Part shown: piece by piece, positions 45,101-64,000 of the stretch
Layout: every line of letters starts with the position of its first letter
Position numbering within the stretch: the stretch's first letter is position 1
Source: Tubulanus polymorphus
Lineage: Eukaryota; Animalia; Nemertea
Length of the DNA: 64,000 nt
NCBI RefSeq assembly: GCF_964204645.1
Contig: NC_134035.1
Span: 7,410,451-7,474,450, forward strand
Reading direction: 5' to 3'
Program-made: the position numbers and the translations under genes
The notes under the pieces: generated by a model
What the model was told of the DNA's origin: nothing
The model's database searches: none
What the model saw: only the letters and a program-made list of their open reading frames with translations

Positions 45101-48100
45101 TTTTTGTACCCTCCTTCAAAATGGTGTTTCATTAGGTATACCCCACAAACCAAGCTATTACAAAAGGCACTACGTATTTCCAGCTCAAAAAGACGGTTGA
45201 AACGAGATATAATACCATGAAAACACTCAAATAGAATATGCATACGTATGGTAGATAACATACAAAAAGGGAAGAGCACATCGGGCAATTCGAGTGGAAA
45301 CCCATTGGTCCAAAGATATATCATACGCGGTAACCTTTTCCTGAGAATTTTGTAATATAGTTTTCTTTCCTACAGAAATATTGAAGATAATCAAATATCC
45401 CATATTTCACGGCATCATATTGAGCATCTGATGGATGACAAGAGTCGATTGATGCATTTGTGAGTAGATACGTGGATCATGCGCAATACAAATTATGCAG
45501 CGATATTACCCGATTTCGTTTTTCAATAGCTGCGTTTACTCTTTTATTATATATTCCTTGAAGGAATCTGAGTAAAAATGCAATAGAATACATCCAACCC
45601 GGAATATTGAAACATATGAAATACCTGAAAATACTGTAAGTATTGACTAAAGTTTGGAGAAGAATATATTGCAGTTTCTTAGATACAAGTGCCCAGGAAG
45701 TAATCCGTATTTCCAAATAATCAGTAAATAATTTGCTTAATTGTCAACTACGTGCGTATTTGATTCTATCTTTTGTTAGTTCATTTGTACATATTTAACT
45801 AACGAATCGTGTCTTTTGTTAAGGACTAATACGATTCATTTTTTCCTAATTCAAATAGTGAACTTCAATACAACAAAATGTCCACACTACCCGAGGGAGT
45901 TATCGAAGGCTTACCAGAAGTTTTCCATTTGTAAGTACACACGATGCTTGGATTTAAACACAATAGAAATTCAATTAACAAAACATGAACAGTTTTTTTT
46001 GTGACAACCAGATTAAAGTAATATTCAGTAATCCGCTGCCGTAGGCGAGGCGCCGATCTTTATTTCTCAATATATCTATATTTTCAGAGATTTAAACGGA
46101 AATAAATTGAAAATATTAAAGCGACATGCTCTCACGAATTGCCCTAAGCTTTATCGACTGTTTTTGGGACGACAGGATCCACCAATGAAAGCTATTCATA
46201 TCGACGCATTCTATAACATAGGCGAATTAACAGATTTGTGAGTCGTCTGTTTATCCTTTTCTGGGTTTGTTTGCACACGTTTTGTATCCTTGGGAAAGGT
46301 TCAATGACCAACTGCATCCATTGCCGATTCAGTCATTACAACGTGTCATAGGCCCTCTCTGGCCTCTGCCAAGAAACGCCGAAACTGCGAATTATGCTCT
46401 TACCGTTCTTCGAGGATTAAAAAACCCGTTTGTATGCGTAGGCCTACATCAATTGTACGATAGTTGGTATTGTAAGCGTCCTGAGGACATAAGAGATTTT
46501 CCGAATTTCCTCCACAGTATATGCGTGTACAATTATCCATTTTCCACCACACCACATTTTTGCGACTTTCAAATAAAAAAAAACACTAAGATTATTTCTG
46601 GATATAGCACTGGTGTCAATTTACATTTAAGCGTGATTCTAAACTTTGGATTCTTTTTTTTAGAATTTTATCACAGAACGCACTTGTGTCGTTCCCTCAC
46701 GTTGTGCTATCGCGACAGAACTATACCAATTTGAAGTTTATGTAAGTGTCTCCAATCATGCAAAGATAGATTAACCACAAAATCACTATGTACAGCTTGG
46801 TATCTTTCTCAATGGTACATGTTTTCTTGAATTTAGATTACTGAAATTCGTGTTCTTGATGGCTCCCCTGATTTTTTAAATGAAGCATCAATTCGAATCA
46901 GGATATTCATGCATTGCATTATTTACAGCCATCTTGATGACAATAAGATCTCCGATTATACGAGTTATGGACCCGAATCATTCACGGGCTCGATGGGAAT
47001 GGCCTATATTTTCAGTCGGGCGAAATGGGAAATGTGGAAAACTACTCCAAATATCGAAGACATGTAAGTTTCTTGGTAATCACTTAATCATCTTTCAAAT
47101 AACTCTTTGAAATGGTTCCCTAAGAATTCCCTTTCAAGAACCATCTGATGATGTTAAGGAGTTTTATAGGGGCTCTTAAAGAACCCCACAGAGATAGGTT
47201 CTTTAAACTTCGAGGAACCTTTCCCTCAGAGCTAAGCCTAAGAAACCTCGATGGTTCTACGGTAGAACCCAGTGACCGAATCGATAGTCGAAACCGGCCA
47301 AGCCCATACGCCGTTTTCTGGAATATCAAACGAGAAACAAGAACCATGGTTTCGGGAATAACATGTTTGTTGCCGTGTTTTCGTGTGTCCGTGTTATTCC
47401 CTGTGTCGTTTGCGAATGGCTCGAACGCACAAAACGGGGAAACGCCGGTAACATGTTTCTGTCTTCTGTTTCCTTGTTTCCATGTGTCACGTGCGGTAGG
47501 TTTTATTAGCCAGTGGCCTTAGATGTCTTGGCATCAAGTTGTACAACGAGCCGTAAACGTTTCTCATGAGAAAAACTTGGATTGCAGTTATTATCCTTGA
47601 TTTGATTTTAGATGGCTGACAAGAAACGCGATTGACGCCGTTAAGCCGTCCGACTTTTGTGCGCTAAAACAACTGAAGATGTTAGACTTGAGATTCAACA
47701 ACCTGAATACCCAAGAACGTCTGCCAAATGATGCGTTTCAGTGTCTCACGACTTTGAAAATTCTGTACGTGCTCCAGTTCAAACATGATTATAGGCTAAT
47801 ATATAATAGAACATTACTTACATGCGTGACACAATATGAACTAATAATGATTATTAAAAGTGGACAGCTCCGATGAATAGGAAATAATAGTGGTGATGGC
47901 CTTTAGGAAATACAGGTTTTTACCTTAGAAGACAACCCCCTTAAGAGCCAGTTCCACTCAAAGAATGTCTCATCTAGGCCCGGTTCCAGAGTTCGTGATT
48001 AAGATTTGACCCCACAGTTAAAACCTTGAATATGCAAAATGCAAAAAATTCTGTAAACTCGACCGCCGATCACACAACTATACTTCGATTTCCGATTTCA

Positions 48101-49447
48101 ATATCAAACCCCCTGTTTCGCTTCCGGCAGGTGTGGTGGGTCTGTAAGGGACACTCAATTGAAAAATCAAATGAAATTAATAACCAAATAGATAACAGGG
48201 ACAATCCCTATTTTAAGATAAAAAAACCATGAATATGAATATGAATATGAATATACGGTCACACGTCGACAGAACTGGACCCAGAACGGCTATTGTAATA
48301 GATAGAAATCATTATTTCGATGGTTTAAATTCAAATATTGGCTAGAGAATAAGCAACCTTTGAACCTTCCCTCTTGACGTTAGTGGATCTCAAGGTATTG
48401 CGAATGTCGTTTTTCAGGCGGTTGGCGGGAAATGAACTTCTGGATGTCTTTCCCGGGTTGAAAAACGCATCAAACCTTCGAGCGATTGAAATTCTACATT
48501 TGGATGATAACCGACTGACCTTCATCGAGAGGGGATCATTCACCGAACACGTGAATTTGAGAGAAATGTAATTTTTATCAAACTATTTTCACTAAATGAT
48601 TGTTATTCCAAATTGAAAAATTGTTCTTTATAAATTCTTGTTGATCAGCTACCACTGTTTGACCATCAGCTTTTATACAACAACACTAGCCTACTTGCTT
48701 TATGACTTTATCTCTACAAATATCAGCGACCAATAATTTCTTTACGAAAAGGAATTGTAAATGCAAAAGAATTAAATCTCTTCTTGGCTATTCTCCTTTA
48801 TAACTAAATTACTTTATATTTCTTAGTGCATTAAATGGAAACGATATCGTTGTGATGGAAGACCAGTCATTTCCAAATTCCACTGTAAATCTGTAAGTTT
48901 CCCCCTTTCATTCCAACGTATCAAACCCAGTGAATTTGGTTATCTCAGACCCTTCCTTTAGAGTCCAGTGTGGGCCTTCTAACTTCAAAACTCTTGTCCA
49001 ACGTTTTATTTCACCATATGTTCCAATTTCTTTTACATCTCATTGTAAATAGCTCCGTAAACGATATATGTATAAAGGCTCTGAAGAGATCACATCTAAA
49101 CAGTTTCTAGCTAACCTGGTTTCGATGAGGCCACGAAGGCCATGTCTCACTACATAAACGACTGGAGTACGTGACAGTGAAAGAATGTGCACTCAGTGTT
49201 TATGCAGCTCCTTGTTACACTATCTCATCAGCTACTGTATACCGATGAACTACGACTATATTCGTAGTTTCTAGATGAAAATTAAAGTTTCATGTGTATA
49301 TTTCAGGTTTGCTAACAATAACCGATTCCGTTTTACGCAGCCAGACGTGTTCCGATATCTCAACTCATTGGCAGTTCTTTTCCTTCATCAAAATGACATC
49401 GAATACGTTCCCGATCAAGCATTCGAGAAATGTTCATTCTCGCGACT
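42178..49447 (+). CDS. Leucine-rich-repeat extracellular/receptor protein, 5' partial (at least 576 aa; remainder presumably beyond the Polinton)
   Basis: Signal-peptide-like start MSYRWSVLLVTVITVVFG. GT-AG exons: 42178-42316, 42939-43086, 43203-43268, 43425-43499, 43889-43951, 44080-44154, 44338-44406, 44813-44878, 45376-45459, 45859-45930, 46088-46237, 46664-46741, 46929-47063, 47612-47764, 48418-48567, 48827-48892, 49307-49447. After exon 2 all introns are phase 2 and most exons carry 1-2 LxxLxLxxNxI repeats (e.g. LKMLDLRFNNL, IEILHLDDNRL, LAVLFLHQNDI). No stop is reached. Confidence 0.85.
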
Positions 49448-49823: not shown

Positions 49824-50030
49824 AGTAATAGGGGTAATGGGCTTTCATACCAAAGGTCGAAAGGTCGAGCCCGAGAAATTTTCCAAAATGTTAAAATAAC
49901 AACAATTTCTACTTGAATTAGTCGCGTACACTCCTAATTCAAGTAGAAATTATTATTATTTTAACATTTGGAAAATTTATCAACCTCAACCTTTCGACCT
50001 TTGATATGAAAGCCCATTACCCCTATTACT
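49824..50030. repeat. Terminal 207-bp fold-back palindrome of the Polinton
   Basis: Arms 49824-49921 and 49934-50030 (8 mismatches, 1 indel), with a 12-nt loop TCGCGTACACTC. Confidence 0.92.
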
Positions 50031-50031
50031 C

Positions 50032-50067
50032 TTAAATGTTATTCATATATATATGAATAACATTTAA
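50032..50067. repeat. Perfect 36-bp palindrome upstream of pPolB
   Basis: TTAAATGTTATTCATATA|TATATGAATAACATTTAA. Confidence 0.9.
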
Positions 50068-50114
50068 ATCATTGAACTTCTAAAATCAATTTTAATAAAA
50101 AATATAGTATTAAA

Positions 50115-53100
50115 ATGGAAGCAAATAAGTACTACTGCCCAACATGTAATATCGATATAGATAAATCCCAAAAAGCAAGACACAATAAAACTAGAACACA
50201 TTTAGAGAATAAATTGAAATTAGAATATGAAGATGATATATTAGAAAATAAATTAGAAGAATTAAAGGATGAAAAAGAAACATACAAATGTGATACATGT
50301 AATCAATCATTCAGTGATAAAAGATATTATAAAGAACATTTAAAATCTATAAGTCATATTAGAAATAAGAATAATGATATTTTAGGTGAAGATTATTTTG
50401 ATAATGATAACGATAAGAAACAGAAGACAATTAAAAGAATAAAAAATAAATTAAACAATAAAAGACCATATATGGAAGATGTAAGAAATTATATTAATTC
50501 ATTAGATAATAAAAAAGATATAGAGATAACCGAAGCATTTAAAAGTGATATTGGTCCAGCAGCTATCGAGTTTAAATTTCATAAAGGTAAAACATTAGAA
50601 GAAAATAAAAAACATTTAGAAAATATGAAAGAAATAATAAAAATAATTACAAACGTAGAATATCCTAAAATAAGTATATCTTCTAAAGTAAAGTTTATAA
50701 AATCTGAAGATAAACCAATATATAATATAAATTCTCATTCACAACATATTATATCTAAACAACATATAGATGATAAATTAGATAAATGTTATAATGAAAT
50801 AAAAACTAAAATAGAAGAGAAATATTTTGAAGGATCTGGTTTAATATTTGATGAGATAATATTTATAACTTTACATGTTTATAACACAAAATATAATAAG
50901 TTAACTAAATCAAAACCAATTGATGAAAATAATTTATCATATTATAAAGAACCCGATATTGAAGCATCAAGTTATATTAAACTACCATTTAAAACTAATG
51001 CTGTAATAAATATACAAAATGAAGATGATAAATGTTTTCTATGGGCTATAATAAGTTGTTTACATCCAACAGAAGATATTACACATAGTTTTAGATTAAC
51101 TCATTATAAACCATTTGAAAATAATTATAAGATAGATAAGTATCCTGTTAGAATTAAAAATATTCCAAAAATAGAAAGAGATAATAATATAAAGATAAAT
51201 GTATTTGATTTAATTAAATTACCAAATACAAAAGGAAATAATATTAAACATTATACATTAGAACCTTTATACCTATCAAAAGATTATGATTCAAATGATG
51301 TTATAGATATACTATATTATGAAAATCATTACATGTGGATTAAACAAATCGATTTATTTTTCAAATCAGAAAATGATCACCATAAAATATATCTATGTAG
51401 AAAATGTTTACATAGATTCAGTAATGAAAGTACATTATTAAATCATAAACAACTATGTGATAATCATGATTATTGTAAATTAGTTTTACCAAATGAAAAG
51501 GATAAAATATTAGAATTCAAAAAATATGATTACAAAAATAAAGTACCATTTGTAATATATGGAGATTTTGAATCATTAAATAAAGAATTAACAGATAAAG
51601 ATAGAAAAGATATATATTATAAAAGAAAGAAATTAAATTCTAATGAAAGTGATTATTCAGAAGACCCACCAAAAACAAATACAATTAAAAAGATTCATCA
51701 ATCAGCTGCAGCTTTCGGGTTATATATTAAATCTAATTATCCAGAACTAATCGAAAGTGAATATTATAATTATAGAAATGAAAATGTTATCAATCATTTT
51801 TGTGACTTATTAATTGAATATGAAATAAGATTTAGTAAATTATTGAATACAAATATAGAAATTATTATGACAGAAGAAGATAAAGAAGAATTTGAGTTTG
51901 CAGATAAATGTTATTATTGTGAAAAGATATTTAATTATAAAGATAAAAAAGTAAGAGATCATGATCATTTGAATGGAAAGTTTAGAGGCGCTGCACATGA
52001 GAATTGTAACTTACAAGCTAAGAAAATTAACTTTGTACCAGTTATATTTCATAATCTATCAGGATATGATGCACATTTATTTATCAAACAGCTATGTTAT
52101 AAAATAGAAGAAATCAATAATGAAATAGAAATATTAAATTCAAATAGATCAAAAGATAAAATACCAACTTATAAATTTAGAATGTTAGCTAAAACATCTG
52201 AGAATTATATATCATTCCAATTTGGTTGTTTAAGATTTATAGATTCATATAGATTTTTAAATAGTTCATTAGATAACTTATCAAAATCATTAGTTAATGA
52301 TGAATTAAAGATATTAAAAGAATATTACCCAAATAATGATGATTTTCAATTAATGAGATATAAAGGCGCAATTCCATATTCTTTCTATAAAAATCATAAT
52401 GATTTTAACATAACTGAATTATTAAAAGAACAATTCTATGACGAATTAAAAAAATGAATATGTTAAAGATGAAGTTTATAATAGAACATTGAATATTTGG
52501 AATCATTTTGAAATTAAAAATCATGGACAATTAGTAGATTTATATTTAAAATCAGATGTATTATTATTAACCGATATATTCGAAAGGTTTAGAGATGTAA
52601 ACCTAAAATATTTTAACATTGATCCTTGTCATTGTTATTCATCACCAGGATTAACATGGGATTGTGGATTAAAATTTACAGATATAAAAATGGATTTGTT
52701 AACAAATATAGATCAATTACTATTATTTGAAAAATCTATAAGAGGAGGTGTTTCAGGTGTATTGGGTGATAGATATTTCAATGTAAATGATAATCCTGGA
52801 TATAAATTATTATACATAGATGCAAATAATCTTTATGGTTGGGCAATGATGGAACCACAACCTTATGGGATGTTTGAAATAACTGAAGTTTTACAAATTG
52901 ATAAATTTGATTGGAAGAAAAGAATCCTAGATATTGCAGATGATTCAGATACTGGTTACTTCTTTGTTGTAGATTTAGAATACCCTGAAAATATTAAATT
53001 CAAATCTAGAAATCTAGCATATTGTCCCGAACATAAAACTGTTAAACATGAAGAATTATCAAATTATCAAAAAAGAATTAAACCCGATAATCATATTCAT

Positions 53101-54144
53101 ACTGAAAAGTTAATGGTGACTCAAGAAGATAAATATAATTATGTAGTACATTATAGAATGTTGAAGTTTTATTTGAATCAAGGAATGATTCTAAAAAAAG
53201 TACATAGATATATTTCATTCAGTCAATCTAAATGGTTAGAAAAATATATAGATTTTAATACTACACAGAGAACTAAATCTAAAACTGATTTTGAAAAAGA
53301 TTTCTTCAAACTAATGAATAATGCATTCTATGGTAAGACTTGTGAAAATATTAGAAATAGAAATGATATTGAGTTAGTTAGTAATGGTAAAAGAATTAGA
53401 CATTTACAATCGTATCCGAAATTCATAGGTAATAGAATATTCGATGAAAATTTAGCAGCAGTTAAATTAAAAAGAACTTCTATGAAGTTCAATAAACCTA
53501 TTTATGTTGGAGCATCGGTTTTAGAAATTTCAAAATTACTAATGTATAAATTTTACTATAACATATTACAACCCCATTTTGGAGAAAAACACATAGAAAT
53601 TCTATACTTTGATACCGACAGTTACATATTAAAGATAAAAACTGATAACATAACAGATGATTTAAAAACATTAAAACACCATTTTGATTTTAGTAATTAT
53701 CCTAAAAATCATGAATTGTTTAGCAATGATAATAAAAAAGTTCCTGGGAAGTTTAAGGATGAATTAGGTGGTGAAGAAATGATAGAGTTCATTGGTATTA
53801 GATCTAAAATGTATTCATATAAAACCAAAACTCATGAAGCTAAAAAGTTAAAAGGAATAACCAAAAGCGTTGTTGAAAAGAATATTCATTTCAAAGATTA
53901 CATCAATTGTATATTTAATGAAGAAGTTAGAAAACATAAAATGAAATGTTTAAGATCTGAAGATCATGAAATGTATATTGAAGAGATAGAGAAGATAAGT
54001 TTGAATCCATTTGATGATAAAAGATATATTTTAGATGATGGAATCCACACAGTCGCCTATGGTTGCAATTTAGATGAATATATAAAATTCAAAAGAGAAG
54101 AAACAAAAGAAAATGAGATTATGAAAAGGATTCTAACGTGTTAA
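50115..54144 (+). CDS. Protein-primed family B DNA polymerase (pPolB) with N-terminal C2H2 Zn fingers and an endonuclease VII-like insertion; split by one frameshift
   Basis: Exonuclease motifs YGDFES, HNLSGYD and FIDS; polymerase motifs YIDANNLYG, KLMNNAFYGK, YFDTDS and KMY. EndoVII-like CYYC...VRDHDHLNGKFRGAAHENCN. ORFs 50115-52457 and 52489-54144 join if one A is removed from the A7 run at 52448-52454. Confidence 0.93.
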
Positions 54145-54152
54145 TAAATTTC

Positions 54153-54175
54153 AATAAAAATTTGTATAATAAATG
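54153..54175 (+). promoter_or_regulatory. Putative intermediate-type promoter AATAAAAA-N-TAAATG (representative)
   Basis: AATAAAAA starts 20-21 nt before the ATG at 50094, 54153 and 61208; variant AATAAGAAAA at 54510. Confidence 0.6.
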
Positions 54176-54514
54176 GAGAGTAAACAAGTACACAGTGAAT
54201 TCTTAGATAGAATTAAAGATACTTCAAGCGTTAAATCTGTAGATTATAAATTCAAAAAGTTAACAGAATTAACAATTCACAAGAAATATTTAATTACTAA
54301 CATTGAAACAATTACTAATAAATATGGAGATAAATTAGTAATTCATTTAGAATATGAAGGATTAAAAGGAAATATATATAAATTCAGAACTTATTTACCA
54401 GATAGATTTCATAGATTATCAAGTGAAGATCTAGAAGAATTATGTTCTGGAGATTTCTATTTCGTATATAAAGGTAAGAATGAAAAAGGGCACCACGATA
54501 TTGATTTCGAATAA
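54173..54514 (+). CDS. Small Polinton protein, putative OB-fold ssDNA-binding protein
   Basis: 113-aa ORF right after pPolB; FKKLTEL...NKYGDKLVIHL...YLPDRF resembles small beta-rich proteins that I recall adjacent to pPolB in invertebrate Polintons. Function is inferred. Confidence 0.55.
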   Translation: MESKQVHSEFLDRIKDTSSVKSVDYKFKKLTELTIHKKYLITNIETITNKYGDKLVIHLEYEGLKGNIYKFRTYLPDRFHRLSSEDLEELCSGDFYFVYKGKNEKGHHDIDFE

Positions 54515-54531
54515 GAAAATATGTAAAATAA

Positions 54532-55290
54532 ATGGCGGAATTAAAAGAATACAGAATATTTGTAGATTCTAGAAAACTTACAAATTATAAATCTCATAAT
54601 TTACTAATACAATTAGATAGAGAATTCAAGAATTGTGTTGATTTAAAATTAGTAAATATAAGTTTATGTAATTCTTTTTACAATATATCGAATAAAACTA
54701 TTGAACATAATACTTTTTTAATTCATATTAGAAATATAAATAAATGGTTTCATCTATTTCTAAGACCAGGATTATATAATTTAGAAACATTATCTCAAGA
54801 AATTAATCGTAGAGCACGGTTGAAAATTAGAAAAGATGATAAATTTTTAATAAGATTTATAAAAAGTGATAGCTCAAATAGAATTAAAATAAAGGTATTT
54901 GATGAAAGTCAACATGCATTTATGGTAAAAAAACCTATAGCTAAATTGCTAGGAATTGAACCAGATGTTGTTACAGTAAACGTAGAAGGTATTTCAAATA
55001 TAATACCTTTTACACATTTTTATATTTATTGCAATTTAATTGACCCAACAAAAACATTTGAAGCAACTAACGATACAACATGTAATTCTAGTATATTAAA
55101 TATTTTACCATTAAAAAATGTTAAAGAATTTGGAACGCAAATAAATTATAATTTAACAGAATGTGATTTCAAACCATGCATTCCTCGTTTTAATAATTTT
55201 AGATTAGAAATTAGAAATCATAATGGATACTTAATTGATTTGAATAACTTTCCTGTAATTTATGAATTAGTTATAAGATGTAAAGAGTAA
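54532..55290 (+). CDS. Minor capsid protein (penton, single jelly roll)
   Basis: IFVDSR...SFYNIS...PGLYNLETL...FYIYCNLID...ILNILP...LEIRNHNGYLIDLNNFPVIYEL pattern typical of Polinton/virophage pentons; 252 aa, intact. Confidence 0.8.
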   Translation: MAELKEYRIFVDSRKLTNYKSHNLLIQLDREFKNCVDLKLVNISLCNSFYNISNKTIEHNTFLIHIRNINKWFHLFLRPGLYNLETLSQEINRRARLKIRKDDKFLIRFIKSDSSNRIKIKVFDESQHAFMVKKPIAKLLGIEPDVVTVNVEGISNIIPFTHFYIYCNLIDPTKTFEATNDTTCNSSILNILPLKNVKEFGTQINYNLTECDFKPCIPRFNNFRLEIRNHNGYLIDLNNFPVIYELVIRCKE

Positions 55291-55307
55291 TTTTTTTCAC
55301 TATATAA

Positions 55308-55649
55308 ATGAATATAACTGTTGGACCGAGTATATGTTTTGGGTTTGATTTTAAACATGGTAAAGAAATGAGAATTAAACTAAATGATGTAATTACTGAT
55401 ATAAAAAGTAAATCATTTAACAATGCATCAATGATTGATTAAGAAAAGTATAATATAGAAAAAGTAATTGATTTAATTAAATCACCTTTAGAATATTATG
55501 AATTAAATGAAGATGGAATTATTGAAGATATTAAAAACATATTATCCAAAATATATGATAATCATAAAACTAGTAATAAAATAAATGTTGAATTAATCAT
55601 AAATAAGTTAACTAAATATTTTGAAGATAGTAATTTTTTTGATAAATAA
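55308..55649 (+). pseudogene. Hypothetical 113-codon Polinton gene with one in-frame TAA (55440-55442)
   Basis: TAAATG start; MNITVGPSICFGFDFKHG...MID*EKYNIEKVIDL...NFFDK* fills the gap between its neighbours. Missing from the ORF track. Confidence 0.7.
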
Positions 55650-55871
55650 ATGAGTGATAATAAGTGGATAATAACTGGATTATATAATGGCGCATTACTA
55701 TCAGTTGGAACTGTTGGTTATTCAATGGTATTAAAAAAAGTATTCAAAATGGGAAGTGTTGATGTTGATAGATTTGATATAAATGATATTTTAAAGTTAA
55801 CATTAGCAGTTACTTTATCTAATTTAACTATTGATTATTTGGAAAAACAAAAATATATTCCTCCCATATAA
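55650..55871 (+). CDS. Small hydrophobic Polinton protein (73 aa)
   Basis: TAAATG start; two hydrophobic helices. Confidence 0.75.
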   Translation: MSDNKWIITGLYNGALLSVGTVGYSMVLKKVFKMGSVDVDRFDINDILKLTLAVTLSNLTIDYLEKQKYIPPI

Positions 55872-55895
55872 ATGCATAATTTTTTTGCTAAATAA

Positions 55896-56318
55896 ATGGC
55901 TTCTGCAATTATAACTATTATAGGATCAGCAATTGTTAACGCTTTAGCATTTACTGGTGGTGGTTATTTATTTAAACATATTGATAAAAATAGTTCATTA
56001 GGAGAACAAAGAAGACATAACTTAGCGTTAGAGAAATATAATAAAGCTGCAGAAGAATATAGAGAAAAGAGACAAAACTATATGGATTATATTAACAAAG
56101 AATTATATGATCAGAAGATTTCACATAGAGATTTTCAATCAGTTGATGATGCAATGAGTTTATATAACGCTGTAACCAATAAAGAAAAATTACATCTATA
56201 CAAACCTAAATTATCAGATTATTATACCCCAAGTAAAGAACAACAGAAATATGAAATAATATGGATTTTAGGTGGAACTGTTATTGTTATATTTGTTGCT
56301 TATAAGTTTACTAATTAG
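55896..56318 (+). CDS. Polinton membrane protein (140 aa): N-terminal hydrophobic helix, EQRRHN coiled segment, C-terminal TM
   Basis: MASAIITIIGSAIVNALAFTGGGYLF; C-terminal IIWILGGTVIVIFVAY. Confidence 0.8.
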   Translation: MASAIITIIGSAIVNALAFTGGGYLFKHIDKNSSLGEQRRHNLALEKYNKAAEEYREKRQNYMDYINKELYDQKISHRDFQSVDDAMSLYNAVTNKEKLHLYKPKLSDYYTPSKEQQKYEIIWILGGTVIVIFVAYKFTN

Positions 56319-56337
56319 TAATTTTTTTGTTAAATAA

Positions 56338-56772
56338 ATGGAAGATAAAGTTGATAATATTGATATTATTCCTCATGATATAAATAAAACTAAATTAAAA
56401 ACATATTTAGAAAAACAAATATTAGAATTTGAAAGTGACTTAAAAGTTAAAAAGAAAAAATATTTAAAAAGTAAAATTATATATTATTTGATTATAAGTG
56501 GTTCGGTTACAATTAGTTCTGTAATAACATTTCTAGCAATATTCAGCCCATTAACACCTTTAGCTATATCAATTGGTGTGTTAGGATTAAGTTCAAGTGT
56601 TTTAACTGGTATAAGTTCAAAATTAAATATAAAAAGTAATAAAGAAAAAATTAAAACTAATATAAAAGAAATTAATAAATTAAAAAATACACTAGATTAT
56701 ATAATAAGTTTAAATGGTCATATAACAGTTGAAGAACAAGATAAATTATTAAAAGAATTAATAAATTATTAA
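56338..56772 (+). CDS. Polinton two-TM coiled-coil protein (144 aa)
   Basis: Hydrophobic hairpin IIYYLIISGSVTISSVITFLAIF-SP-LTPLAISIGVLGLSSSVLTGI flanked by K/E-rich helices. Confidence 0.8.
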   Translation: MEDKVDNIDIIPHDINKTKLKTYLEKQILEFESDLKVKKKKYLKSKIIYYLIISGSVTISSVITFLAIFSPLTPLAISIGVLGLSSSVLTGISSKLNIKSNKEKIKTNIKEINKLKNTLDYIISLNGHITVEEQDKLLKELINY

Positions 56773-56788
56773 TTTTTTAATTATATAA

Positions 56789-58177
56789 ATGGTAGATAGT
56801 TTTCCAAAAGCTTTCCAATATAATAAATCAATTAAATATAATATTCCAGCAATAGATTTTAATAAAGATATTACATATAGAAATGAAGTTTTAGATTCAT
56901 TAATTGATTTATATATTTATGTTACTGAAACTAATAATTTTAATGCAAAGATGGAAAATATATTTCATGTATATTTAATTAATTTTAAAAAATTGAAAGA
57001 TGAAAAACAATGGTTATTAAAATCTAATATGAAGTATTGGCAGAATCAATTAAATTTTGCTGTTTATTGTGCAACAACAGGATGTGGAATTAGTTGGAAT
57101 GATCATTTGAATAATTCTAAATATAAACTAATTCAAAGTTTATTTAGATTTCATACATACTTTCAAATCAGAATAATATTAAATGAATTAGAGTGTGCTT
57201 TACCAGGATCTAGGTATTTCAAAGAATTAGATAATAATATTAATTTATCAAAGTTTTATAAAATTTGCAATGAATTTAATATAGATATAAATAATTCTGA
57301 TTTTAGAATAAAAATTGGAACAATAAGATCACTTCCATGCCCTAGAAAGATTGCAGAATATTGTGCACTTCCCATACCATCTAATAGCTTTTATAATATC
57401 TATAATAAAAAATTAGGTTATGGTAAAATAGAAACAAAGGATTTAGAAACATTAAATTTCAATAAATTACCAAAATTTTATGATAATTTAAAACAAGAAA
57501 ACAATAATGGTTGGGTTTATTTTATTTTAGAAAATAGTGAAGGTTTTACTAAATCAGGTATAGAAAGAATAAATCAATCTATTAGAACTTATTTGATTTG
57601 TATTCTAGGATCACAAGTTGAAACAAGATCACCAATAATTGGAAATTTGAATACATCATTCGATACACAAAAACAATTTAAAGTTTTATTTGAAGATTCA
57701 ATTCATAATGATAAAAATAGATCGATTCCAGAAAACATTATAAGATATCAAAATTATTTAGATAAATCTCATGTAAGACTAAATTATTGTATAGGCCCTA
57801 ATCTATTAATTATTTCTAATGATTTAGTATTGAAGATGGGAAATATAATTGGTTATAATAATCTAATTAAAACTGCAACAATAAATAATTCATTTGGGTT
57901 AAATGATATAAATAAAAAGATTATTACTGCTCCAAAATTAATGGAAGGTGAAAAAAATAAAAAACATATTCAATCAACAGAAACTAAAACTAAGAATATT
58001 AAATTAAATAATGATTCTAAAATAAAAGATTACAATACATCAGAAGATATAAAAACTGATAAAATTTAACATGATATAATTAAACTAAATGATGATAATA
58101 AATCCCATGAAAATACTAAATTAGCTATAACTTGTATAGGAATTGTAATCGGAGGAATATTATATTTTAAATTTTAA
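56789..58177 (+). CDS. Uncharacterised Polinton protein with C-terminal TM anchor; premature TAA at 58067-58069
   Basis: 426-aa ORF (YWQNQLNFAVYCATTGCGIS...) continues in frame after the TAA as HDIIKL...HENTKLAITCIGIVIGGILYFKF* to 58177, which closes the intergenic gap. Confidence 0.75.
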
Positions 58178-58193
58178 TTTTTTTATTATGTAA

Positions 58194-59902
58194 ATGGATG
58201 TAGAAGGTGGAGAAGATTATGAAATGGGAGAAATGGGAAATAATAATGAAGGATATATTGATGATGATTATAATGATGCAGGTGCTAATATTGATAATGA
58301 TGATGAATCATCATATAATACTAATTTAGGTGAAGATGATGATTATGATGATGATTATGATGATGATCCCGAATTACGTGAAAAATTAAATAAATATTTA
58401 GAAGCTCCTGAAAGGGGTAGAATTTCAACTAGAAGAGAAAGAAAAGAATTTATGGAACTATTAGAAAAACAACAAGAAAAATATCCTGATAAACCTATGG
58501 AATTATATAAAATGAAATCTAGAGTAACAGATACAATTGTTAACGAACTATTACCAAAAGTTGTAATAGATGAAATTGATACTGAAGGTGTTGTAGAACA
58601 AATTTTTAAAGATGACCCATATTTCACAAATAATTTAGAATTTAAAAATGATGCAAGGTATTATAATCTTGAATTAAATAGGAATACTGTATCAATTCAA
58701 TTATCTAGAATGGGTCAAGAAAATATTTTTGAACCTGGAATGCGAGCAACATCTACAATTGAAGGTTCAAAAGGTGGTAGAGAATTTCTCAGAATTATAT
58801 GGAATGCACTCGATAGAATAAATGAAAAAGAACCAATTCCTAATATTGATATAAACAAATATTCACCATTTAAAAATCCAAATCCAAATCCTACTGATTT
58901 TGATCCAGAAATGGAAGAGAATAGAAATCGATTAGATAGATTAAGATCTTCAACACCCGAAACATCGAGAAGAGACACTCAACAAATTGATAATGATTCA
59001 AGTAAATTACAATTAGAAAATTAAATTGATAGATTAAGAGATTCAGAAGAAGAAATGAATAGTACTGGAATAAATCGACTGCAATATTTACTAGAAAAAG
59101 GATTATTTGATTTAACTGATGATGAATTAGAAGCATTTCCTGAACAAACACGTAGAGAAATTAAAGGTACGCAAGAATCAGCTGATAAAATTGCGCATGA
59201 TAAAAGTATAAGAGATTTTAAAATTAGAACTTTAGAAAAAGAATTAACTGATAAAAATAAAGAAATAGAACAATTAAAATTAGATAGAGATAATAAAGTT
59301 ATTGAAGAAATTGAATTTAAAAAAAGAAATGCATATTTAGAAAAAGAAAAAGATGATTTAGAATATAACATAGAATTACAAAAAGAAGAAATTAAATCAT
59401 TATTAAAATCATATGATTATAATATTAATAGATTTTTAAAAGTTATTTTTAAAGATTTGTTGATAAAACCAAATTCTGAAATATCATTAAAAGACAGAAT
59501 AAAGTTATTATTTAAGTTAGAAGGAATAACAATTCTTTCAATTCTAACAGCTGTAACTATGTTATTTACAACATGTTATTTACAACAATTGGTTTAGCAA
59601 TATCAAATGCTTTGAAATCTACTCCTACTCCAAATAAACCGGATAAACCCCCGAATGATAATAATTCTATACAAGATAAAGTTAAAGATGGTTTAAAGAA
59701 ATTAGCAAAATATTTATGGGAACTATCAAAGAAATCTGCTGCAGCACTACCAGGAGTTATTGCTTCAATTGTTGGTTTTATATTGAAATCTGCAGGAAAC
59801 ATTATTAACTTTGCTGCTGAACATATTATTTTATTTTTAATTACGGTTGTAAGTGCTATTATTTTTGGTTTAGTAAATATGATATCAAAAAATATCAAGT
59901 AA
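58194..59902 (+). pseudogene. Acidic / coiled-coil / C-terminal multi-helix membrane protein (about 564 aa restored), disrupted twice
   Basis: ORFs 58194-59024 and 59055-59597 are in the same frame across a TAA at 59022. A 14-bp tandem duplication ATGTTATTTACAAC (59559-59586) shifts the frame into ORF 59573-59902. Confidence 0.8.
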
Positions 59903-59927
59903 ACCATGATATCAAAAAATAAATAAT

Positions 59928-59950
59928 TAATTTTTTTTGTTAAATAAATG
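59928..59950 (+). promoter_or_regulatory. Putative late-type promoter of MCP, TAATTTTTTTT-N-TAAATG (representative of 7 copies)
   Basis: The same motif starts at 55288, 55631, 55877, 56319, 56770, 58175 and 59928, always 19-20 nt before the ATG. Confidence 0.7.
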
Positions 59951-61195
59951 AGTGGGAGTTATATAAGTCCTTCGAAGATTTCTAGAATATCTAACGCTAT
60001 TAAAGCAGAAAGATCACATCATATAATTACTCATAACCCTTCAAATATTAATCCCGATGAAACTTTATACGTTAGAATTCCGAGATTAACACAAAATACT
60101 TTTTATGTTCCAAACAGTATTTATTTATCAGCTGATATAAAAGTAATCGGTAATAATAATAATTATGTTGTTGATAATGTTGGAAGATATTTGATTAAAA
60201 AGTTAACAATAAAGATTGGTCCAGAAACAGTTTTCTCATTAGATGATTATAATTTATTTATGCATTATAAAGATTTATGGTTAACTAAAGAAAATAGAAA
60301 TAATATGATATTTCAGGGTATTCAATCAGAAAACCAAAATAAATTAAGATCAGAAGCTAATAGCGCAATATTAACTAATGATGTAGATAAATTGATAAAA
60401 AGTATATATGGAAGCAAATATAAAATTCCATTAGACTTTGAATTGATAAATAATAATGCACCTTTATATAAATACGCAATTCAAGAAGATATTATATTTG
60501 AGATAACATTTGCTCCTGTTAATGAAATTGTATTATCTAGCGTTAATAAAGATATGAGTAATAAATTATCGAATATATGTTTAGAATATGATACAGTAAC
60601 TGATGAAAATATTTCAAGTATAATTCAAACTCAATACAATCAAGGATTTTCATTATTATATGATTATATTGATAAATTTAAAACTGTAACTATTAATGCA
60701 AATGATGAAATAATTAATGAGAATATTAACTTCCCTAGAAGATCTATTAAAGGTATATTAATATTTTTTACCATTGGAACGTATACTAATGGTGCAATAA
60801 ATGTTGACAATTATTATAATCCTGAAATAACAAAAGTAGAAATAACTATCGAAGGAATAGCGAATAAAATATTTTGTCAAGGAATGAGAATGATTGATCA
60901 ATGGGTAGAAATTAAAAAACATTTTATGAATGAAAAAATAAAATCATTTGAAAATTGTAACATTAATCAAATTGATTATTATACCGGTAATAAATATGCA
61001 TTATGGTTAGATTTTAGAACAACTGAAGATAATTCATTACATGGTTCTGGGAAAAAACTACAAAATACAAAAGATGGAATACAATTATTCATAACAAAGA
61101 AAAAGGGAATCAAAAATTTTAAAATGCACATTTATATTATATCTGACGCGCAATTAAATATTGTAAATTCTCAATTAGATAGTGTTATGTATTAA
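59948..61195 (+). CDS. Major capsid protein (double jelly roll)
   Basis: 415 aa, intact, beta-rich; NPSNINPDETLYVRIP, NVGRYLIKKL, YKIPLDF, NICLEYD, RRSIKGILIFF and YALWLDFRT resemble invertebrate Polinton MCPs; size and context fit. Confidence 0.82.
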   Translation: MSGSYISPSKISRISNAIKAERSHHIITHNPSNINPDETLYVRIPRLTQNTFYVPNSIYLSADIKVIGNNNNYVVDNVGRYLIKKLTIKIGPETVFSLDDYNLFMHYKDLWLTKENRNNMIFQGIQSENQNKLRSEANSAILTNDVDKLIKSIYGSKYKIPLDFELINNNAPLYKYAIQEDIIFEITFAPVNEIVLSSVNKDMSNKLSNICLEYDTVTDENISSIIQTQYNQGFSLLYDYIDKFKTVTINANDEIINENINFPRRSIKGILIFFTIGTYTNGAINVDNYYNPEITKVEITIEGIANKIFCQGMRMIDQWVEIKKHFMNEKIKSFENCNINQIDYYTGNKYALWLDFRTTEDNSLHGSGKKLQNTKDGIQLFITKKKGIKNFKMHIYIISDAQLNIVNSQLDSVMY

Positions 61196-61227
61196 AATTT
61201 TAACTTTAATAAAAATATATATAATAA

Positions 61228-62283
61228 ATGGAAGGTGGAATATATGAAATACAATCTCCAAGTGAAATGATATCAGATATATATTATATATTACCTTATG
61301 ATGAATACAGTAAGTATTTTGGAGATTACTTTAATCAATTCAAATATAGAATAAGTAAAATAGATAAGAATATTGAAACAAAAATAGAAGATAATATTGA
61401 ACCTAAAATAGAAGATAAGAATGATATTGAATATAAAATAGAAGATGATATTGAATCTAAAATAGAAGATAATGTTATACCTTCTACATCGAATGATGAT
61501 AAGATTGAAACAAAAATAGAATATAATATTGAACCTAAAATAGAAAAATCAAATGTTCAACCAAAAGATAACATCAGATGTATGTATTGTGAAGAAGATT
61601 TTGATAATTACAATGATTATTTATTACACATCAAAAAAGATGAACATATTTTACAATTAGTAAAAACATATGCCAATATATATAAAGATAAATGCAAAGA
61701 GGATCAGAATTATTGTGCCTTCTGTAATGAATGTATAACAAAGGCTAATTGGGCAAAACATTATAAATTAAAAACAAAAGGTGGAAATGATTCAGCCCAT
61801 GCAATACAAGTATTTAAATCTTGGTGTGAAAAATGTAAAGAATATGTAATATATGATAAACAATTGAATCATAAATACTCAATTAAACATATTGGTACAG
61901 ATAATGTAATAGAAAATCCAACAGTTATAAATCCAAAATTTAATAATAAGAATATATTAGATTATCGGTGGTATAGAAAAACATTTATAGATTATTTCTT
62001 GAGTAATGATATAGTTACCATATTGAAAAAGTTAGATAACTTTAAACCAAATGTAACTTATGCAATGAACTTATTTGAACTTAAATATGATGATTTTAGA
62101 GAATTTTTAAATAAACATCCATCTAAAACTGAAATCGAAAATTATATTCCAAAAATATTTTCAAGAGAAACATTTAGGAAATATAAACTCGAGAATTATT
62201 TAGGAATTATACCAAAGAAAATGCAAAGGGATATATATTTAGAATACAATAAGCTTAAAGAAAAATATGAAAATGAAAATTAA
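61228..62283 (+). CDS. Zinc-finger protein with KIE(D/Y)NIEP repeats (351 aa)
   Basis: CMYC...HIKKDEH, CAFC...KH...H and CEKC...HKYSIKH fingers; tandem peptide repeats at about 61370-61550. Confidence 0.75.
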   Translation: MEGGIYEIQSPSEMISDIYYILPYDEYSKYFGDYFNQFKYRISKIDKNIETKIEDNIEPKIEDKNDIEYKIEDDIESKIEDNVIPSTSNDDKIETKIEYNIEPKIEKSNVQPKDNIRCMYCEEDFDNYNDYLLHIKKDEHILQLVKTYANIYKDKCKEDQNYCAFCNECITKANWAKHYKLKTKGGNDSAHAIQVFKSWCEKCKEYVIYDKQLNHKYSIKHIGTDNVIENPTVINPKFNNKNILDYRWYRKTFIDYFLSNDIVTILKKLDNFKPNVTYAMNLFELKYDDFREFLNKHPSKTEIENYIPKIFSRETFRKYKLENYLGIIPKKMQRDIYLEYNKLKEKYENEN

Positions 62284-62287
62284 AAAG

Positions 62288-62667
62288 ATTATAGAATTCA
62301 CTGTATATTGATGGATGAATGGATGAGTTGGATGAGTTGGAAGAATTGGATGAGTGGAAGAGTGGATGAGTATAATAATATATATATTTTACTTTTTAAC
62401 ACATAAATTGGAAGAATAGTATGAGTATAAATATAATATTTTTATTCTTTATTAAATTTAACACAATATATATATATATTATTAAAATAATATTTAAATA
62501 TAGTATAAAATTGATAAAATAACTTCAAATCAAACTCTTACTGTTTTAAAAATAAAAAACATATGTAAATTATATATTATTACACTCATCCATTCATCCA
62601 CTCATCCAATTCATCCAATTCATCCAATTCATCCACTCATCCATTAGTATACAGTGAATTCTATAAT
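62288..62667. repeat. Inverted repeat (97-bp arms with 7 TGGA(T/A)GA(A/G) iterons each) between convergent Polinton genes
   Basis: 62288-62384 versus 62571-62667, 9 mismatches and no gaps, around an extremely AT-rich spacer. Confidence 0.9.
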
Positions 62668-62683
62668 ATTTTGAATTAGGATT

Positions 62684-63298
62684 TTATTTTATAAATTTAT
62701 ATTCATATGGAAATTGTAATCTCATAAGTAATTTGGAACCTTTATTATTCTTTAATTTATTCATATATTCATCATGTAATTCAGTAGGTATAATTTGATT
62801 TTCTTCCAATGATTGTTGCATAGATTTTTTATCTTTGTTATAAAATAAAACTAGAAATCTTATATTCTCTCTAAAGTCTTTCACAATTGAATTATATTTC
62901 TGATTTAAAACCCAAGTTGTTATCCCAAAATGTCTCCCAGAGAAAGCTAAATAACATAACTCACTTTCTCTAACTTTTGAATCATGTAAATTTGCGCAAT
63001 CATCGATAATAAATAATGTATTAGATCCTTTATAAATATCTAATGCAATTTTTATACAATTATCTAAATTATCTTTCACTGTTTTAGAATTTAATATAAT
63101 AAACTTTTTATCTTTAAAAACTATATCTCTATTGTACGTTTCATTCATTTCATAAGTTGGGCAGAATAATATTATATTATCAAAATGATTCTGATAAATA
63201 GTTTCTAATAAATCTAATATGAAGTGTGTTTTACCACAATTTGTAACTCCAGTTATTAACATATTATGTGGTTCAAATATAAATAAATCTTTATTCAT
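62684..63298 (-). CDS. A32/FtsK-like genome packaging ATPase
   Basis: Walker A GVTNCGKT, Walker B FIIDD, SGRH arginine-finger motif; 204 aa, intact. Confidence 0.92.
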   Translation of the reverse strand: MNKDLFIFEPHNMLITGVTNCGKTHFILDLLETIYQNHFDNIILFCPTYEMNETYNRDIVFKDKKFIILNSKTVKDNLDNCIKIALDIYKGSNTLFIIDDCANLHDSKVRESELCYLAFSGRHFGITTWVLNQKYNSIVKDFRENIRFLVLFYNKDKKSMQQSLEENQIIPTELHDEYMNKLKNNKGSKLLMRLQFPYEYKFIK

Positions 63299-64000
63299 TT
63301 ATTCTTTTAATTTTACTAGATAAAATCCATTCATTAAATTTATCATCGTATCCTTTATATTTCACCAAAGAATACTTTTTTCCTTTAAGAGTTTTAGTTT
63401 TCAATACCTTTTCTATTTTGTATTCTATTTCATCTGGATTTGGTACTAATGCTAATTCTTGTTCATAAAAATAACCTAATATTTCTTCATCTTTTAAATC
63501 AAACAATTTATAAACAAATGGTTTAGTTAATATTATCTTTTTAATTTTAAATATTTCTTCAGTAAAATTAGGGGTATAACCTTTATAAAATGTTTTTCGA
63601 TATTTAGAAATTCTAACATGTTGTCCTATTTTAAATTTAGGTTCTCCGAAATCATGTGTAACAAACGCACCATATAAATTATTCCAAACTCTTCTGAATT
63701 TTCTTCTTGTCTAGCTTGTATAGGTTTCATATTTATAGAACTATGTTTAGAATTATTATAACCTTTAACTAAATCATCTAACACATCGATATATTTATAT
63801 GTTTCATTAGCGGTGAAATATTTCCACATTCTAGTTTTCAATGTTTTATTAAATCTTTCTATAACAGATGCTTTTTTATCTGAATGTGTTGAAAAATATT
63901 CTACATCGTTATCAGTTAATAGTTTTTTAAAATGTTTGTTATAAAATTCTTTACCTTCATCAAATTGTATTTTATCTGGGATAGCTTCTTTAAATATTAA
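63291..64000 (-). CDS. Retroviral-type (rve) integrase with C-terminal chromodomain; 5' part outside window, frameshift near 63690
   Basis: IQFDEGKEF...ASVIERFNKTLK (second D and E of the DDE triad), YNNSKHSSINMKP; after a 1-nt loss, KFKIGQHVRISK...YKIEKVLK...LVKYKGYDDKFNEW (chromodomain). Confidence 0.9.

Follow-up and report, generated by a model that had tools for sequence, protein, structure and literature searches.

The reactivation of integrated virophages is decided by promoter matching with the helper virus, as described in a report on mavirus and the endogenous mavirus-like elements (EMALE) of Cafeteria and the polinton-like viruses (PLVs) of Tetraselmis (10.1101/2025.10.09.676808). 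PLVs have also turned up inside entomopoxvirus occlusion bodies, a link that a first reading of the DNA studied here had mentioned and that passages of PMC11296320 bear out; the same passages place two of the four entomopoxvirus-associated PLVs within the mavpol2 capsid clade, as divergent members, and the accessible portion of that text contains no match for promoter, motif or transcription. As described in PMC11980589 and PMC5294985, a vaccinia late promoter overlaps the start codon with TAAAT and a following G, and its tenth nucleotide (nt) upstream is a conserved T among further Ts; intermediate promoters read TAAA, not always followed by TG, lack that conserved T and have a run rich in A/T at 15-19 nt upstream. 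TAAATG is also marked at many genes of salmon gill poxvirus (passages of PMC4542343). Here we analyzed a 64,000-nt stretch of the genome of the nemertean Tubulanus polymorphus (GCF_964204645.1, contig NC_134035.1, positions 7,410,451 to 7,474,450; hereafter the window, numbered from its first letter), the right end of which is occupied by an element that is an endogenous Maverick/Polinton (Polintoviricetes), because it carries pPolB, an rve integrase, an A32-type ATPase and a double jelly-roll capsid. Nearly all its genes, and those of a clade of relatives, start with a two-part signal that, at a probability of roughly 0.55, would be recognized as a promoter by the RNA polymerase of a large DNA virus of pox type during co-infection and would make the clade helper-dependent and virophage-like.

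The original prediction, made from the window alone, had listed eleven starts with an exact TAAATG (ATGs at 54173, 54532, 55308, 55650, 55896, 56338, 56789, 58194, 59948, 61228 and, on the minus strand, 63298), and TAA indeed precedes the ATG in 11/11; the twelfth start, that of pPolB (50115), lacks the exact hexamer and reads TTAAAATG. Across the element TAA precedes 30 of 343 plus-strand ATGs, and the expected rate is 10% from spacer positions, or 6.5% under a first-ATG-after-stop rule on Markov-simulated sequence. Enrichment over the AT-rich background, the test named beforehand, was clear: none of 100,000 spacer shuffles reached 11/12. The TAA doubles as the upstream stop codon at 55650 alone, as had been noticed, the other spacers being 16-45 nt long. 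The internal control proposed earlier, gene fragments created by lesions that lack the motif, stood in part: the fragment start at 52489 is a TTG, the earliest ATG in the distal part of the polymerase gene (52690) likewise lacks it, and three or four such controls are by themselves weak evidence. The ATG at 55308 opens a real but broken gene, with a homologue in a related locus (L003:1333).

The motif proved longer than the hexamer and bipartite: ahead of TAAATG lies a T-run with its peak 12 nt from the ATG, and ahead of that an A-run. A repeat finder recovered a 23-nt repeat family (D2) at six window starts, which together with 55308 form a T-run class of seven starts reading AATTTTTT-N5/6-TAAATG. 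Four further starts form an A-run class with an AATAA(A/G)AA run upstream, and the ATPase start has TAAATG alone, with neither run. Trained on 83 starts from relatives, with the window left out, a matrix gave the 11 true window starts higher scores than the other 36 TAAATG sites, which are incidental (p 3.6e-6), and ranked the seven T-run starts at the top of all 47. These signals are intact in the window copy despite its broken genes.

As relatives we took the best 80 of 198 related stretches found in metagenome contigs by a capsid profile search, and scored starts in nine core families where the gene reached at least 80% of the median length. TAAATG is present at 55/62 core starts in 17 motif-positive loci (the window included) and at 0/203 core starts in 38 motif-negative loci; 15 loci with one scorable start (5 of them positive) and 11 loci with none were left aside. 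Since the loci were split by the motif itself, the information lies in the empty middle, with no locus between 0 and 50%, and because several loci are near-copies the independent cases are fewer than these counts. The AT-rich negatives (thirteen loci) have the motif at 0/35 starts, and positives with a GC content of 0.30-0.44 (ten loci) at 29/32. Among positive loci, 4/7 misses still have TAAAT, moved 2-3 nt upstream so that it is out of frame or no longer joined to the ATG. A quick, midpoint-rooted capsid tree of 60 rows placed 18/18 positive rows in one 22-row clade (SH-aLRT 100), which also includes L015, L044 and L045, without the motif, and L014, in which it is displaced; an ATPase tree yielded the same motif-positive group. 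Gene order and orientation vary widely among the motif-positive loci, and two families, ORF351 and an HNH/zinc-finger family, occur in motif-positive elements only. Outside the clade, the separate lineage L086 has TAAATG at 7/7 starts; its ATPase is 26-29% identical to those of the clade, and the six best matches of its integrase (31-48%) are all motif-positive loci, which suggests gene exchange among elements that would occupy a common transcription niche.

Over 82 starts the profile shows A across positions -18 to -16, T across -15 to -10 (87% at -12) and then TAAATG, with G near-absent at -15 to -11 and present at +4 in 72%. T at -12 is found at divergent genes (21/28) as well as tandem ones (47/54), and T5 follows merely 3/18 convergent gene ends, so the T-run belongs to starts, and its interpretation as the terminator of the upstream gene was ruled out. 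The signal persists in head-to-head genes and within overlapping genes, and its class tracks the gene, the T-run being present in 0/10 ATPase, 13/20 capsid and 0/3 ORF351-family starts. A purine occupies -3 in 7/62 motif-positive versus 162/203 motif-negative starts. Set against synonymous shuffles, 79 coding sequences from the clade show no depletion of the poly(A) signal A(A/T)TAAA (observed/expected, O/E, 1.05), compared with a depletion to 0.79 (z -3.3) in 36 coding sequences of AT-rich negatives; we take the absence of depletion as modest evidence that fits transcription outside the RNA polymerase II (Pol II) system. Depletion of TTTTTNT, the pox early terminator, was dropped as an argument because it reflects generic homopolymer avoidance. 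In L009, L010, L011, L031 and L053, head-to-head starts lie 28-30 nt apart in 5/10 pairs, as if one symmetric AAATTT core might serve two promoters.

We then set this profile beside those of two families of large DNA viruses. As in vaccinia, TAAATG is fixed on the start codon and a T-rich core lies 5-7 nt upstream; the A-run class is like vaccinia intermediate promoters in being A-rich, without a T-run, and at times having TAAA without TG. The clade has TAAAT(G) over the start codon, as in pox post-replicative promoters, and, judged against the published descriptions, also the T-rich core about 10 nt or the A/T-rich run 15-19 nt upstream. The iridovirus-type set, reached through a motif scan of viral contigs, comprised 12 of 17 fetched large-virus loci with RNA polymerase genes (anchor genes removed, near-copies collapsed), a sample of chloriridovirus-like genomes and one unclassified contig. 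At TAAATG starts, T at -12 is present in 17/52 iridovirus-type versus 75/90 Polinton cases (p 2e-9), and at least four Ts at -15 to -11 in 6/52 versus 49/90. Conversely, AATAAA lies within 8 nt of the ATG at 100/137 iridovirus-type versus 44/110 Polinton starts, and AATAAATG at 50/52 versus 39/90 TAAATG starts, its position being fixed in the Polintons. The iridovirus signal is thus a sliding AATAAA with an A-rich upstream region and no T-run, TAAATG being common to both groups, and the Polintons do not show that combination (AATAAA 0-8 nt from the ATG, no T-run). This near-ATG AATAAA of the iridovirus-type genomes (L209-L225) is not mentioned in the review passages at hand.

The claim with which this work started, transcription by a pox-like RNA polymerase, survives in a narrower form. 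A clade-wide promoter-like signal, a vaccinia-like architecture, T at -3 and the lack of poly(A)-signal avoidance speak for it, but the hexamer is not diagnostic of poxviruses: iridovirus-type genomes carry TAAATG at 52/137 starts (38%) across the 12 loci, so the upstream T-run alone favors a pox-type helper. Besides this iridovirus count, several observations weigh against our interpretation. AATAAATG stands at 8/11 window TAAATG sites, as in iridoviruses; the T peak is at -12 in Polintons and at -13 in vaccinia, as counted from prose descriptions; and the fit of the Polinton profile, which appears better to published vaccinia late promoters than to the iridovirus signal, compares poxviruses by description. 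The GC-rich negatives (126 coding sequences, few sites) also lack A(A/T)TAAA depletion (O/E 1.02), and head-to-head spacers of 3-20 nt occur in motif-negative Polintons too, for which reason compactness was dropped as an argument against Pol II. The conserved junction hairpins look more like the 3' ends of iridoviruses, mimivirus and yeast elements than like those of poxvirus late transcripts, which read through. No poxvirus helper was recognized in a motif scan of viral contigs (80 of at least 120 rows, 13 opening an open reading frame, ORF, of at least 60 aa), and capsid searches of viral contigs gave no match. Finally, the related loci are partial, so an element-encoded transcription factor could be missed.

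An alternative helper would be a large DNA virus other than a poxvirus, most plausibly an invertebrate iridovirus or else an unsampled nucleocytovirus, with its polymerase reading the signal; this would still leave the clade helper-dependent. TAAATG at 35-69% of ORF starts in contigs of nucleocytoplasmic large DNA viruses and the junction hairpins would suit such a helper, as would the capsid fold, nearest to iridovirus and chlorovirus capsids, although at 10-12% identity this is uninformative; the sliding AATAAA without a T-run in iridoviruses against the fixed, T-run-bearing TAAATG of Polintons makes us regard this explanation as unlikely. Host Pol II acting in the nucleus and steered by an element-encoded or host motif-binding factor would account for the many TATA-like sites, TATA(T)AAATG, for the restriction of ORF351 and the HNH/zinc-finger family to motif-positive elements, and for the expression of coral Polintons with no known helper (PMC11131425). 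Against it stand T at -3 and some 6 undepleted A(A/T)TAAA per kb of coding sequence, and neither TBP, TFIIB nor VLTF3 had a match in the positive loci, VLTF3-like genes being found in the negative L060 and L045. Moreover, a TATA box at the start codon would put the transcription start within the ORF, and we consider host transcription improbable.

A pox-related polymerase could also come from a linear element in the cytoplasm, like pGKL2 of yeast, or from a larger sister element, with no virus helper at all. Yeast virus-like elements have a protein-primed polymerase, which counts for this idea. They also share a TAAAN initiator, slippage and hairpin termination (sections of PMC6211774), but their essential ATNTGA upstream element is not in the Polinton profile, no RNA polymerase gene was found in any related locus scanned, and helpers of the pGKL type have been described in fungi; the idea is accordingly given little weight. 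Slightly more remote still would be TAAATG as a translation signal, whether for stop-start coupling, as an in-frame guard stop, or for trans-splicing of a polycistronic RNA. The TAA shares the reading frame of the ATG and is a stop, and the spacers are short (16-45 nt), but coupling to the upstream stop is seen at 4/95 starts plus 55650, the signal persists in head-to-head and overlapping genes, and out-of-frame TAAATATG variants exist. AG occurs at -15 to -4 in just 16/82 starts, on which ground a trans-splice acceptor was dropped. Chance, for which the 23% GC content of the element might be cited, is refuted by p values near 1e-10 or lower and by the behavior of the AT-rich negatives and GC-richer positives given above.

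We therefore return to a pox-type helper, which we favor at the probability given at the outset, and to helper dependence of the clade, which is likely. In the mechanism we propose, helper infection would bring intact copies or incoming genomes to the cytoplasmic factory, where the post-replicative polymerase would start within TAAA, slip and add a 5' poly(A) leader; such a leader would offer A at -3 instead of the templated T. Signals of the A-run type, which precede the genes for the polymerase, the SSB-like protein, ORF351 and the putative minor capsid protein, would correspond to intermediate promoters; those of the T-run type, at the capsid gene and most of the virion block, would correspond to late promoters. 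By way of the integrase, copies would then go back into host chromosomes and be silent there as long as no helper is present, and protection of the host, suggested earlier as antiviral defense, is possible as a hypothetical consequence. A wider proposal, which we put forward tentatively and with less than even odds, is that pox-type viruses have integrating virophages in this clade and in at least one unrelated lineage that swapped an integrase with it, their intermediate and late promoters being copies of the helper's. The copies in host chromosomes would act as inducible traps, the motif would mark undiscovered pox-like viruses in many invertebrates, and sister Polintons would use host or self-encoded transcription. 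This bears on how animal Mavericks/Polintons are transcribed and why their virions go unseen. A promoter signature would sort Polintons into helper-dependent and helper-free from sequence alone and name the class of helper; if true, integrated-virophage biology extends from protists to animals, and pox-like viruses are to be sought in hosts where none may be known.

The features of the window copy, with strand and evidence, are as follows.
47610..49447, plus strand: leucine-rich-repeat exons of the host that have GT donors; the element follows the last of them on the 3' side.
49824..50030, no strand: left end of the element, starting AGTAAT, a 207-bp imperfect palindrome (repeat analysis, fold, 1,119 reads in which the flank ahead of 49824 is unlike).
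50092..50117, plus strand: A-run class start signal of pPolB, AATAAAAAA ... TAAAATG (sequence inspection).
50115..54144, plus strand: pPolB gene, frameshifted near 52450 (distal piece 42% identical to the L023 polymerase, which matches PF03175).
54150..54514, plus strand: A-run signal and 113-aa gene, possibly a phi29-type SSB (a lead only, score 0.84).
54509..55290, plus strand: A-run signal and conserved 252-aa gene, putative minor capsid protein (family in 24 loci).
55289..55649, plus strand: T-run signal and 113-codon gene with an internal stop near 55440 (homologue L003:1333).
55631..55871, plus strand: T-run signal and conserved 73-aa hydrophobic gene, its TAA shared with the upstream stop.
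55877..56318, plus strand: T-run signal and conserved 140-aa gene.
56319..56772, plus strand: T-run signal and 144-aa gene with two transmembrane segments (two-TM), sub-threshold SLATT similarity (E 3e-5, below the cut-off).
56770..58176, plus strand: T-run signal and conserved gene, shortened by a stop near 58067.
58175..59902, plus strand: T-run signal and conserved acidic/coiled-coil/membrane gene in three pieces, with breaks near 59020 and 59570 (family 3).
59929..61195, plus strand: T-run signal and intact double jelly-roll major capsid protein, 415 aa (predicted fold, pLDDT 86).
61205..62283, plus strand: A-run signal and ORF351, a 351-aa Cys/His-rich gene (found in motif-positive elements only).
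62270..62685, no strand: 115-bp inverted repeat between convergent genes (repeat analysis, fold).
62684..63320, minus strand: A32-like packaging ATPase, TAAATG start without T-run (PF04665, E 1e-12).
63626..64000, minus strand: rve integrase, cut by the window edge, frameshift near 63690 (weak match; full homologue in L001).

The element had been placed from 50094, but its actual left boundary is 49824, from which the GC content drops from about 0.37 to 0.23 up to the window edge; the CpG observed/expected ratio is 0.51 in the element (50030-64000) versus 0.92 in the host flank. Its position 3' of host leucine-rich-repeat exons with GT donors leads us to infer a location within an intron of an animal gene. 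Median raw DNA-read depth over the element is about 57x that of four unique host bins in the same species, and 1,119 raw DNA reads run from the left end into unlike flanks, so the element is multicopy, with about 60 copies. The first 46 bp alone of the left-end palindrome are common to many host reads, hinting at related families or miniature derivatives. In one sequencing run (X1) the element-to-host ratio of contig depth, which is not a copy number, is about 8x higher than in runs X2 and X3 of the same study, and the X1 contigs include an 83-kb record; amplification, library bias or a copy-number difference are possible causes. Four more runs from this species contained neither the host exons nor the element and so carry no information on expression. 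Elsewhere in the window, a GC-rich DIRS-like retrotransposon at 31500-35700 was assigned by eye from reverse transcriptase, RNase H and tyrosine-recombinase-like ORFs.

Five genes of the window copy are broken (pPolB near 52450, 55308, 56789, 58194 and the integrase near 63690), so this copy is unable to make particles by itself. The predicted capsid fold matches those of the SGIV, PBCV-1, mavirus and D13 capsids (best E 2e-17), the mavirus capsid coming at rank 49. The L001 homologue of the integrase matches rve (E 2e-9) and a chromodomain, and ORF351, whose family has two representatives, gave a single-sequence fold with a pLDDT of 36. No Pfam/NCBIfam match to a minor capsid protein or maturation protease was found among window ORFs and related-locus representatives, the 252-aa gene being a putative minor capsid by assignment; nor was there one to an RNA polymerase subunit, TBP or TFIIB in the window ORFs and representatives of related ORF families from these partial loci, in which several genes specific to the clade have no assignment, and VLTF3-like genes among the scanned loci were confined to the motif-negative L060 and L045. 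PDB sequence searches gave no useful match, and neither a search with one host exon nor one of Rfam gave any. Gene content and relatives point to Polintoviricetes, and the element probably belongs to Polinton group 2: among relatives, L018 has an SF1 helicase in place of pPolB and L060 has VLTF3, and group 2 and coral elements are described, in PMC8502044 and 10.64898/2026.06.19.733378, with an SF1 helicase replacing pPolB or with VLTF3.

Other observations concern the relatives. The motif-positive L031 (8190-12390, minus strand) has the polymerase motif NSLWGKFGQ, compared with NNAFYGKT in the window, and this difference in polymerase type implies that the motif travels with the virion block. 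The motif-negative L044, L045 and L060 have VLTF3-like genes, and L044/L045, inside the motif clade at 49% GC, have a Bcl-2 homologue too. L003 bears a deoxynucleoside kinase gene (10340-10981) with a T-run TAAATG start and four close relatives at E 1e-20. At its N terminus the L086 integrase is extended by 200 aa. Genes encoding two TM segments and resembling SLATT below the threshold (window 56338-56772, L009 2348-2956) might be membrane effectors. Hairpins of unrelated sequence occupy the same convergent junction in the window (62270-62685), L001 (3745-3830), L002 and L005 (3180-3250), those of the relatives being shorter; they may act in termination, in processing or in recombination. Capsid relatives in the P0045 cluster and L081-L083, filed under Bartonella assemblies and prokaryotic metagenome-assembled genomes, are most likely host or eukaryotic contamination.

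In the comparison with known systems, the link between PLVs and poxviruses (occlusion bodies) and promoter matching (mavirus) are already known. Among the full-text literature matches listed, a scope in which subscription journals mostly do not fall, there was no report of pox-type promoters in Polintons, and in the accessible main text the word promoter had no match in the papers on entomopoxvirus PLVs, adintoviruses, corals and egovirus or in two classification papers (PMC11296320, PMC8502044, PMC11131425 and 10.64898/2026.06.19.733378 among them). The window element is like other Mavericks/Polintons ('adintoviruses') in its pPolB, rve integrase, A32 ATPase, double jelly-roll capsid and many chromosomal copies, but unlike most relatives, which have a purine at -3 and no TAAATG, its clade has T at -3 with TAAATG. 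To our knowledge, yeast pGKL elements have no capsid or integrase. They share a TAAAN-type initiator, hairpin ends and AT-rich linear DNA, but differ from the Polinton clade in having their own polymerase and the ATNTGA element (sections of PMC6211774). Unlike in vaccinia, the signal sits in an integrated element of more than 14 kb in which no polymerase of this kind was seen, and nearly all genes of the element carry it, those for the DNA polymerase and integrase included. Like mavirus/EMALE and the Tetraselmis PLVs, the element is an integrating double jelly-roll virus whose promoters would match the late promoter of its helper; those systems have protist hosts and Imitervirales-type helpers and were shown experimentally, whereas this one has an animal host and is read from sequence alone. 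The entomopoxvirus PLVs are also Polinton-type elements linked to poxviruses, but they were found physically in occlusion bodies and lack an rve integrase, which the window element carries. The novelty lies in a pox-like promoter signature of two classes, shared across a clade of animal Polintons that bear an integrase, and in its computed contrast to iridoviruses.

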